This document shows, piece by piece, positions 2,595-9,499 of a stretch of DNA of 32,000 nucleotides. The notes under the pieces were generated by a model. It worked only from the letters and a program-made list of their open reading frames with translations, did not search any database and had not been told where the DNA came from. Within the stretch, counting starts at the first letter, position 1. Each line of letters starts with the position of its first letter. The DNA is from Chloroflexota bacterium (GTDB lineage Bacteria > Chloroflexota > Anaerolineae > B4-G1 > SLSP01): NCBI GenBank assembly GCA_019873725.1, contig JAIOAS010000010.1:7214-39213 (forward strand), read 5' to 3'. A program made the position numbers and the translations under genes.

Positions 2595-2650
2595 ATTCCA
2601 GCCTCCAGCATCTAGCTTCCAGCATCTAGCTTCCAGTATCCAGCATCCAG
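2595..2650. repeat. Heptanucleotide tandem array (~8 units, CTGGATG/CTGGAAG/CTAGATG read on the minus strand)
   Basis: A 7-bp periodicity is directly visible. The array overlaps the last codons and stop of the methyltransferase gene (C-terminus ..YWMLDTGS). Confidence 0.8.
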
Positions 2651-8500: not shown

Positions 8501-9499
8501 CTATTCCTCCGCCAACAACACCCTTAGCGCCTTCTGCGCGCGGGCGGCGTCCGGCCCGGCGGTACATTTGCTGAACCAGTAGTAGGCTTCCTCGGCGCTC
8601 ATCGCCTGGATGCCCTGCCCAATCGCCTCGATGCGGTCCTGGCGCGTCAGCGGTTTCACCGCCAGCAGGATCAACGCCAGGCGCAGCCCCGTCGGTTCGT
8701 CGAGGTAGAACGGCTTGTCGCTGCCTGCGGCGCGGGCCAGGTCGGTGGCCTTGTAGCCATTGGCGCGCAACGCCGCCAGCAGGTGCTCGGTCGTCGCGTG
8801 GAGCGTCTGCGCGTCCACGTCCACGCTCCACAGCGCCTGCGCGGCCGGCCTGGTGGCCTGCTCGTAGGTAAATCGAGACGTCTGCCGCCCATTGACCCAC
8901 TGGTAAAGCGCCGCGCGGTAGCCCCCGGCAGGATCGGGCAGCGTGTAGAGCGCAAAAGGCCGGGCGGGGTCGGGCTGGAAGCTGGAGGCTGGTTGCTGGA
9001 TGCTGGATACTTGAAGCTGGATGCTGGATGCTGGAAGCTCAGTGCTGATGGCTGACGGCTGACGGCTGACCGCTGACCGCTGACCGCTGACCGCTGACGG
9101 CTGACCGCTGACGGCTGATAGCTGATCGCTAACCTCGAAGAGACGACGGCGGCCGGCGGTATGCAGCGGTTCGGGTAAGCGTTGCGGAGCGGCGAAAAAC
9201 CAGCCGTAGCACGGGACGCCGGGGAAGGGCTGCTCCAGGCGGTGCTGCGCTTGCAAGGCCGCGTAATCCCCGGCGTCCAATACGCGGATCTCGGTCAACG
9301 TCACCGTCCCGATGACCGCGCCGTAGGCCAGCGCGTCGGGATCGAAGCCCAGGGCACGACAGCGCGCATCCCGGCGCTCGGCGGCGGCGTGAATCGCCAG
9401 CGGGCCGCGATAGGCCGTCTGCCAGGTGCGGATGTCCACCGTCTTTTCACCACGGATCACTTGTTCCGCGCGGGGTTGGTGAAAACTCAGAGCCTTCAC
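8501..9499 (-). CDS. ASCH-domain protein fused, through a repeat-encoded linker, to a ~175-aa C-terminal domain (candidate DUF3780-like)
   Basis: The N-terminus MKALSFHQPRAEQVIRGEKTVDIRTWQTAYRGPLAIHAA fits the ASCH pattern. The GTG start overlaps the DUF499 gene stop (GTGA). The C-terminal domain assignment rests on gene position only. Confidence 0.65.
   Translation of the reverse strand: MKALSFHQPRAEQVIRGEKTVDIRTWQTAYRGPLAIHAAAERRDARCRALGFDPDALAYGAVIGTVTLTEIRVLDAGDYAALQAQHRLEQPFPGVPCYGWFFAAPQRLPEPLHTAGRRRLFEVSDQLSAVSGQPSAVSGQRSAVSRQPSAISTELPASSIQLQVSSIQQPASSFQPDPARPFALYTLPDPAGGYRAALYQWVNGRQTSRFTYEQATRPAAQALWSVDVDAQTLHATTEHLLAALRANGYKATDLARAAGSDKPFYLDEPTGLRLALILLAVKPLTRQDRIEAIGQGIQAMSAEEAYYWFSKCTAGPDAARAQKALRVLLAEE
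8974..9127. repeat. Heptanucleotide tandem array, ~22 units (GCTGGAx block, then GCTGAyx block), inside the ASCH-fusion CDS
   Basis: Units can be read off directly: gctggaa gctggag gctggtt gctggat gctggat acttgaa ... gctgacg gctgacg gctgacc x3 ... gctgatc gctaacc. It encodes SDQLSAVSGQPSAVSGQRSAVSRQPSAISTELPASSIQLQVSSIQQPASS. Confidence 0.85.

Follow-up and report, generated by a model that had tools for sequence, protein, structure and literature searches.

The window analyzed here is a stretch of 32,000 nucleotides (32 kb) from contig JAIOAS010000010.1 of a Chloroflexota bacterium, in which tandem arrays of 7-nt units lie within and around two minus-strand genes of what the predicted domains indicate is a DUF499/DUF1156 "Hma" anti-phage defense operon, related to bacteriophage exclusion (BREX) systems. 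One gene encodes a DUF1156 DNA methylase, and the other encodes a fusion of an ASCH domain with a DUF7680 domain. With a probability of roughly 70%, these arrays are YCAGC-core repeats akin to the short tandemly repeated repetitive (STRR) sequences and to the TAACTGA heptamers, which colonize linkers and gene boundaries, evolve rapidly and, where coding, are held in frame, and which act as passengers, not as ON/OFF switches.

If the arrays are passengers, long simple-sequence repeats (SSRs) built of 7-nt YCAGC-core units (or of the 8-nt unit GAATCAGC in sister lineages) would be carried at many permissive sites, with length changes arising via slipped-strand mispairing and possibly also via exchange between arrays. 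Inside genes, selection would leave those arrays that have a stop-free orientation, a frame-keeping net length (changes of three units, or 21 bp) and an interdomain position. In the linkers, they would be translated as Ser/Ala/Gln/Pro-rich, probably disordered spacers of variable length, while any unit number would be tolerated outside genes, i.e., in the 5′ untranslated region (5′-UTR), the stop-codon region and intergenic hairpins. Coding arrays would then persist at tolerant positions and be held in frame by purifying selection.

Heptanucleotide arrays in the window

Arrays were searched for with Tandem Repeats Finder and with a lag scan of the whole window. Tandem Repeats Finder detects them at 2597-2650 (period 7/14), at 3466-3515 (period 7/14/21, with degenerate units carrying the array to 3432 and the count to 12 units), at 5616-5658 (a 14-mer in 3.1 copies with 100% matches), and at 8974-9039 and 9051-9134 (together approximately 22-23 units); they are designated A1 to A4 (Table 1). 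Periods 7 and 14 are the only ones giving arrays in the lag scan, and 200 simulated windows of matched dinucleotide content contain essentially no arrays at any period. The four arrays are therefore real and beyond chance, at the four places named in a preliminary description of this DNA. In total, the window contains seven arrays belonging to four unit families (NNTCAGC, WWCCAGY, GTCTACC and TCCTGCM), none of which is identical to STRR1-3 or TAACTGA, and further arrays are present in related loci (denoted by L numbers below). The heptamer arrays of the window extend beyond the defense locus, to 22568-22618 and 25345-25408.

On the coding strand, A2, A3 and A4 follow the pattern NNYCAGC, and A1 is its reverse complement (GCTGGAT). 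The array at the methylase 3′ end thus stands where it was first described, with the correction that its orientation is opposite to that of the others. A1 overlaps the methylase stop codon (2626-2628), continues into the spacer ahead of the next gene, and contributes approximately the last eight codons and the stop of the methylase, whose C-terminus reads ..YWMLDTGS*; comparison with orthologues reveals that the usual ..VQGKL(L) is replaced by ..VQGTYWMLDTGS*. A2 consists of seven CGTCAGC-type units followed by a CCAGC-type block with an ATCAAGT unit, and A4 contains 12 NNTCAGC units, an ACTGAGC boundary unit and nine WWCCAGC units that include TTCAAGT. A3 ends 1 nt past the stop codon that closes the upstream gene; its other side directly adjoins an AAGGAG Shine-Dalgarno sequence. 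The open reading frame (ORF) of the methylase spans 2626-5781 (1051 aa). However, its orthologues begin with MSQSLIES/MPQSLIES, and AAGGAG lies 8 nt upstream of the corresponding ATG. The true start is therefore at 5601, which places A3 in the methylase 5′-UTR, as previously assigned.

Repeat tracts whose unit length is not divisible by 3 thus occur in two coding sequences (CDSs) and one 5′-UTR. The coding arrays are read in frame as the 7-aa repeats anticipated earlier, here SAVSGQP/SAVSRQP and ASSIQ... The longest perfect period-7 tracts measure 21 bp in A2 and 34 bp in A4, i.e., three to five units, and the units are heterogeneous. Since TGA falls in every frame of the GCTGACG repeat, one strand is closed, and the genes of the window use the TCAGC sense. 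This orientation rule for the TCAGC type is arithmetically forced and trivial. The restriction that the preliminary description had drawn from it stands for GCTGACG; it does not extend to the GGAT/CCAGC type, which is stop-free both ways and is used by A1 in the opposite sense.

Arrays occupy interdomain linkers

Fusion of ASCH with DUF7680 is the normal architecture of this protein, as seen in 288 homologue matches of 284-392 aa, mostly from Anaerolineae/Chloroflexota; therefore, the arrays did not create it. In distant array-free orthologues, the ASCH-DUF7680 linker comprises 26-40 aa of non-periodic, Pro-rich sequence, and in the array-bearing subclade, defined as proteins at least approximately 65% identical to those of the window, it is a periodic peptide (SAVSGQP, PASSIQQ, ESANQRIG) of 35-116 aa. 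Likewise, five distant array-free methylase orthologues have a 9-aa linker (KREAASEPV-like) with conserved blocks on either side, and between the same blocks the members of the subclade have 26, 28, 28, 33, 35, 42, 50 and 77 aa. Because array-free orthologues have shorter linkers at these points, the arrays occupy pre-existing interdomain linkers. They are located at residue 695 of 991 in the methylase and residue 124 of 332 in ASCH-DUF7680, at domain boundaries far from the 5′ end. Alignment of array-free orthologues, which had been proposed as a check, thus shows the replacement of short non-repetitive interdomain linkers in both genes. In addition, an in-frame TCCTGCM array in a housekeeping gene with PPDK_N and PEP-utiliser domains indicates that the arrays are not specific to defense genes.

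Length changes preserve the reading frame

Orthologous arrays of relatives differ widely in length and unit type. L006 and L128, which come from different metagenomes, are 99.4% identical over 10 kb, and their sole indels, of 21 and 42 bp, lie inside the ASCH array. Since the indels between near-identical strains sit in arrays, the arrays are far more mutable than their surroundings, and array hypermutability is supported by these sequence comparisons. ASCH-DUF7680 proteins of 332 aa (window), 339 aa (P0002) and 325 aa (P0003) likewise differ in 7-aa steps. The two largest coding expansions carry a 21-bp higher-order period, with lag-21 identity of 0.99 versus 0.83 at lag 7 in the L006 ASCH array and of 0.95 versus 0.72 in the L127 methylase array; perfect non-coding arrays have a period of 14 (A3) or 7 (L130). 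The sole single-unit (7-bp) indel seen separates L131 from L132 (99.2% identical) and is non-coding, just past the stop codon of the ATPase gene hmaC. Within genes, only frame-preserving length changes are seen among the relatives compared. The length polymorphism expected among related strains was hence found, and the one-unit frameshifts inside CDSs that should have accompanied it were not, with changes of 21 and 42 bp only. Arrays are also identical across independent samples and assemblies (L001 = L002; L003 = L004 = L005 = L145, 100%). The methylase linkers of L130 and L132 (26 versus 33 aa) were dropped as a near-identical-strain comparison because the operon is mosaic: the two loci are 99.6% identical in the ASCH flanks and only 86.8% in the methylase flanks.

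The census of reading frames covers consensus assemblies of about 20 array alleles, of which about 12 come from a tblastn-confirmed metagenome scan that does not require an intact frame and about eight from gene-call-based sources. None of these alleles is out of frame. The fully contained ASCH-DUF7680 genes (27 loci) and every close methylase orthologue have a single reading frame, and the only multi-frame methylase matches are L180 and L181, which are approximately 50% identical. By comparison, neuO switches genuinely by heptanucleotide repeats: of 64 complete genomes, 65.6% have it OFF, and mixed lengths occur within a culture (PMC13001214). Two candidate frameshifts were rejected. P0122, a 146-aa member of a 90% cluster, is a spurious gene call generated by a 100-N scaffold gap (approximately 7757-7856) inside the ASCH array of the 92-kb contig L189. 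The partial two-frame match L156 is a degraded DUF7680 remnant whose frame changes away from any array; its neighbor is a tRNA-like sequence, and it has a small palindromic insertion. Arrays break assemblies elsewhere as well, L153 ending exactly at one.

Composite architecture of the coding arrays

A2 and A4 share their internal order, an NNTCAGC block followed by a WWCCAGY block that includes the TCAAGT variant and ends with ..CCAGC TTCCAGC (peptide SSFQ). The common order had been pointed out for the window, and the two-block composite is indeed present at both linkers in all lineages of the subclade. In L003, L006/L128 and L007, block 1 is made of the 8-nt unit GAATCAGC (peptide ESANQRIG) at both linkers. 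The size of the block-1 unit matches between sites in six of seven lineages (7/7 in the window, L001 and L127; 8/8 in L003, L006 and L128), the seventh, L129, being mixed with an 8-mer in the ASCH gene and a 7-mer in the methylase gene. The 8-mer lineages are not mutual nearest relatives when arrays are masked, with ASCH flanks 83% identical between L003 and L006 and 91% between L006 and L001. This co-variation suggests exchange or homogenization between arrays, or recombination of operons.

Non-coding and inverted arrays

A3 and A1 are complementary over 35 nt (91%), including 21 nt of perfect pairing; they are separated by 2970 nt and bracket the methylase CDS. Arrays upstream of the methylase are also found in L129 (108 bp) and L130 (55 bp), the latter in the orientation (CTGGATG) opposite to that of the window and L129. 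The pairing is not conserved, as the arms in L127 are non-complementary and L003, L001 and L006 lack an array upstream of the methylase. Between HmaC and ASCH, two genes that otherwise overlap, as in the window, L130-L132 contain an inserted 23S_rRNA_IVP gene (PF05635, E = 4e-30). It is flanked by inverted arrays, with arms of 29 nt that are 86% complementary in L131. Such insertions, encoding a four-helix bundle, occupy 7007-7484 in L131, 3732-4412 in L132 and 6907-7502 in L127. The inserted gene is decaying, with a 1-bp frameshift in L131 and, in L132, an insertion of approximately 180 bp at 4075-4254 that resembles a miniature inverted-repeat transposable element and has terminal inverted repeats TACTTTGTCA/TGACAAAGTA and a CTAG duplication. 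Outside the defense locus, a CdhD-like gene (25425-26393) is preceded, just ahead of its Shine-Dalgarno sequence and start, by the inverted pair at 25345-25408, which is predicted to form a hairpin of -39 kcal/mol (z = -6.2). The unit family of this pair, GTCTACC, is found in frame near the methylase N-terminus in L001, L006 and L129.

Alternative explanations

According to the preliminary description, the arrays are possible phase-variable contingency loci. In this reading, adding or losing one or two units would shift the methylase or ASCH-DUF7680 out of frame and reversibly switch defense. A change of one unit does shift the frame because the unit length is not divisible by 3, and the simulated products of a one-unit loss measure 755 aa (methylase) and 273 aa (ASCH-DUF7680). 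In addition, array lengths change quickly, neuO is a precedent for heptanucleotide switching inside a CDS, and the host genes belong to defense. Nevertheless, this reading is quite improbable: it is not supported, and against it stand a frame census without OFF alleles (compared with the OFF majority of neuO), perfect tracts of just 21-34 bp with heterogeneous units, positions in interdomain linkers distant from the 5′ end, and comparable in-frame arrays in housekeeping genes. Near-identical strains differ within the CDS by 21 and 42 bp, independent samples return the same consensus, and a scaffold gap accounts for the single allele that looked truncated (P0122). That the arrays are mis-assembled low-complexity sequence is scarcely credible. 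They do disturb assembly, as seen at the L153 end and the L189 gap, but reading frames are kept across every array, orthologous arrays occur in many independent assemblies, and separate samples and assemblers gave identical sequence. In favor of in-frame passengers, finding 12 of 12 alleles in frame by chance (one-third each) has P ~2e-6. Some points nonetheless weigh against that view. The alleles are not phylogenetically independent draws; consensus assemblies would hide minority out-of-frame subpopulations, and assembly breaks caused by the arrays (L153, L189) could hide heterogeneity. The linkers are probably disordered, since an AlphaFold model of ASCH-DUF7680 based on a 17-sequence alignment gives a predicted local distance difference test (pLDDT) score of 27-35 and no secondary structure at residues 112-175, but this support is weak because the model as a whole is poor (mean pLDDT 48). 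Furthermore, passive passengers leave unexplained the two-block composite shared by both linkers in all lineages, the co-variation of block-1 size between sites independently of flank phylogeny, and the inverted arrays that bracket genes.

A tentative proposal for their origin, and a quite possible one, is that A2 and A4 are copies of a single composite module (a TCAGC block plus a CCAGC block ending in TTCCAGC) that would stay alike through ectopic gene conversion or a genome-wide homogenizing process; it concerns origin, not function, and is compatible with arrays that are passengers. The same block order, TCAAGT variant and terminal units at both window sites, the persistence of the composite throughout the subclade, the matching unit sizes, the 8-mer lineages that are not closest relatives by flanking protein sequence, and the mosaic operon of L130/L132 are consistent with such a module. 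However, target-site duplications or defined termini were not seen in the arrays, arrays of similar units are bound to align well, L129 is mixed, whole-operon recombination could yield the same pattern without array-to-array conversion, and the comparison covers a handful of lineages. It is doubtful that the non-coding arrays are functional cis-elements, with A3 as a 5′-UTR translational regulator of the kind proposed for TAACTGA repeats, or with inverted arrays serving as RNase III-type stems or as homology for cassette exchange. A3 ends at the Shine-Dalgarno sequence and has counterparts at orthologous positions in L129 and L130, the complementarity of A1 and A3 exactly brackets the CDS, complementary arms surround the PF05635 gene of L131, the fold at 25345-25408 is stable, inverted neighboring pairs recur in other phyla (nine among 137 arrays in the matches listed), the cargo between ASCH and methylase varies by lineage, and regulatory roles have been proposed for heptamer repeats (PMC4679880; Nostoc preprint 10.1101/2022.06.06.494920). 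Against this stand the opposite orientation of the L130 array, the missing array at that site in L003, L001 and L006, the non-complementary flanking arrays of L127, and the fact that inverted copies of one repeat are automatically complementary. Improbable, too, is an actively homogenized YCAGC-core system with 7- or 8-nt spacing set per genome, which would provide boundary homology or pairing together with adjustable linker lengths in defense islands. At boundaries, it could serve cassette exchange or RNA processing, for example through the inverted arrays around the methylase and the inserted 23S_rRNA_IVP gene. In linkers, it could tune the geometry or specificity of a complex containing the methylase and the ASCH-DUF7680 reader, by analogy with the EcoR124 family of Type I restriction-modification (R-M) systems, in which the number of 4-aa repeats in HsdS sets the spacer length of the target site.

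Relation to known repeats

STRR sequences of heterocystous cyanobacteria, which are dispersed in the genome, resemble the present arrays in being tandem heptanucleotides of several families (within the 32-kb window, NNTCAGC, WWCCAGY, GTCTACC and TCCTGCC), so that the initial label of STRR-like is apt. STRR1 (CCCCAGT) shares CCAGT with the ATCCAGT unit found here. STRR arrays are described as mainly intergenic, and their phylum and units differ from those of the window. In phase-variable mod and hsd genes of Type III and Type I R-M systems in Haemophilus, Neisseria and Helicobacter, the repeats are tetra- or pentanucleotides in long perfect tracts close to the 5′ end, and OFF alleles are frequent. 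Like them, the window has an SSR with a unit that is not a multiple of 3 in a defense methyltransferase gene; unlike them, it shows neither a long perfect 5′ tract nor frequent OFF alleles.

The closest parallel is found in the TAACTGA heptamers of Beggiatoaceae, cyanobacteria and Bacteroidetes, whose complement TCAGTTA encodes LSVISYQ (MacGregor 2015, PMC4679880). In both cases, 7-nt units are repeated in tandem, and one strand has stops in all frames while the other encodes a 7-aa repeat (LSVISYQ there, SAVSRQP/SAISYQQ in this array family). Both are mostly intergenic, often just upstream of start codons or overlapping stop codons, and their copies within ORFs lie at the protein periphery or between modules. 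TCAGTTA and the TCAGCTA found here are one base apart. The present units differ in being GC-richer and degenerate (NNTCAGC, WWCCAGY), in having an 8-nt variant and in their host, Anaerolineae (Chloroflexota). They also form long composite interdomain linkers in conserved multidomain enzymes, for which the orthologue series shows in-frame length evolution.

In neuO of E. coli K1, as here, a 7-nt unit within a CDS gives a heptad peptide, and full-length protein is made only at repeat numbers divisible by 3 (PMC13001214). Literature cited in the same source indicates that repeat length also modulates enzyme activity. The neuO tract is perfect, comprises 3-53 copies at the 5′ end, and has a majority of OFF alleles and mixed lengths measurable in culture; the tracts of the window are imperfect and lie in internal linkers, with OFF alleles not seen among about 20. 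Heptamers had been thought unfamiliar as in-frame CDS components, but the TAACTGA repeats (PMC4679880) and neuO (PMC13001214) are precedents. In the surveys of long SSRs (5-11 nt units) by Mrazek and co-workers, as summarized in PMC4679880, heptanucleotides are the most abundant and phylogenetically scattered, slippage is proposed as their origin, and coding-region SSRs mostly have unit lengths that are multiples of 3. The window departs from this pattern, with 7- and 8-nt units that are coding and stay in frame as triplets of units.

These comparisons imply that an SSR in a methylase gene is not automatically a sign of phase-variable R-M, and that a census of frames across alleles, set against neuO, is a practical test. 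In the orthologue series, hepta- and octanucleotide repeats have replaced short ancestral linkers between domains and change in length by steps of 21 bp. On the practical side, such arrays break metagenome assemblies and produce spurious small ORFs. If real, the co-variation of unit type and the inverted arrays bracketing genes would suggest a novel repeat-generating or homogenizing process.

Occurrence in other genomes

A scan of one genome per species with the pattern (TCAGCNN)x3 + TCAGC gave at least 119 stretches (L008-L126); the following figures refer to the matches listed. Acidobacteriota dominate, and Chloroflexota, Planctomycetota, Verrucomicrobiota, Cyanobacteria (Nostoc, Okeania), Bacteroidota and others are represented. 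The range of STRR/TAACTGA-like repeats now includes Anaerolineae, and the listed matches point to relatives of these arrays in numerous phyla of soil and sediment, with Acidobacteriota foremost. Outside long open frames lie 77 of 137 arrays, and nine neighboring pairs are inverted; the 60 arrays that lie within open frames of 100 aa or more are all in the TCAGC sense. In-frame (TCAGCNN)n arrays occur in an SMC gene of Nostoc sp. NIES-4103 (L050) and in a YfhO membrane-protein gene. In metagenome-assembled genomes of Acidobacteriota, such arrays are especially common, often as closely spaced inverted pairs. With (SAVSRQP/SAVSGQP)n as the query peptide, the matches were limited to 31 short hypothetical ORFs (Moorena, Terriglobales and others); they are probably gene calls on intergenic arrays and provide no census of real proteins.

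Host operon

Pfam assigns DUF1156 and N6_N4_Mtase domains to the methylase ORF, which matches HmaB in PADLOC (E = 1e-79). Together with the HmaC match of the DUF499 ATPase (Table 1), these assignments mark the locus as a probable DUF499-centered, BREX-related Hma system. Such systems are described in PMC12839542, which notes for Type-2 systems a fusion of ASCH with a small reader-like module and, as far as its available part goes, does not mention repeat arrays. The DUF499 ATPase (HmaC) and the DUF1156 methylase (HmaB) are common to the Hma systems and the window. A helicase was not found in the window and would lie outside it; in relatives, it is either an SNF2 helicase located farther downstream or a PLD-helicase located upstream.

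Table 1. Repeat arrays and genes of the window (1-based positions)
Feature	Position	Strand	Description
Array A1	2597..2650	-	about 7.7 units, GCTGGAT/GCTAGAT on the coding strand; inverted relative to A2-A4
Array A2	3432..3515	-	12 units inside the methylase gene; encodes SAVSRQLSAVSDQQSASSLQDQVPSFQ
Array A3	5616..5658	-	perfect (ATCCAGTATCCAGC) x3; methylase 5′-UTR
Array A4	8974..9134	-	about 23 units; linker between ASCH and DUF7680 domains; encodes SDQLSAVSGQPSAVSGQRSAVSRQPSAISTELPASSIQLQVSSIQQPASSFQ
HmaB-like DUF1156 N6-adenine DNA methyltransferase	2626..5601	-	991 aa from the MSQSLIES start
ASCH-DUF7680 fusion protein	8501..9499	-	332 aa; ASCH at residues 4-88, DUF7680 at residues 196-330
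HmaC-like DUF499 AAA+ ATPase	9496..12582	-	1028 aa; stop overlaps the ASCH gene start; PADLOC HmaC E = 1e-106
Variable cargo, ASCH gene to methylase	5658..8494	-	CAP-domain protein and two small ORFs
CAP-domain protein	6704-8494	-	
162-aa ORF	6113-6601	-	
187-aa aspartyl-protease-like ORF	5658-6221	-	
PHP + AAA ATPase gene	1..2422	-	downstream of the methylase; begins near 2422 and is cut off by the left window end
TCCTGCM heptamer array	22568..22618	+	about 7 units; lies in frame within a PPDK_N/PEP-utiliser gene, inside the PPDK_N domain; encodes ASCILPPASCILPP
Inverted heptamer pair (GTAGACA)x4 / (GTCTACT)x4	25345..25408	+	Tandem Repeats Finder detects the half at 25347-25375

Related operons carry different cargo between the ASCH-DUF7680 and methylase genes (5658-8494 in the window, 11105-13280 in L001 and 11042-12787 in L003). 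L003 contains a CAP-domain protein alone, to which the window adds two small ORFs, and L001 and L006 contain three other small genes, one of them Tricorn_N-like. The first 2,500 nt of the window were considered as a conserved 2.4-kb stretch without an ORF, a candidate that was rejected in favor of the PHP + AAA ATPase gene; this gene is absent from the ORF list because the window ends within it. Neither Rfam nor tRNA scans of the window gave a match.

Other repeats in the window

A GC-rich element of approximately 38 bp (..CCCTC..TGGGAGAGGGGCCGGGGGTGAGGG), similar to repetitive extragenic palindromic (REP) sequences, lies in frame in two unrelated genes, at 3787-3826 and 23187-23223. The copy in the methylase gene encodes PGPSPTGRGV and is missing from the L006 orthologue; that in the PPDK-like gene encodes PSPSGRGAGGEG. 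Between two minus-strand genes, a 77-bp unit with AAAATCCGTT sub-repeats and an internal inverted repeat is present in 2.1 copies of 98% identity (27491-27653). In addition, a 94-bp dispersed repeat occurs as inverted copies at 2426-2519 and 26491-26584 with 86% identity, one of which spans the start of the PHP + AAA ATPase gene and the spacer just upstream.

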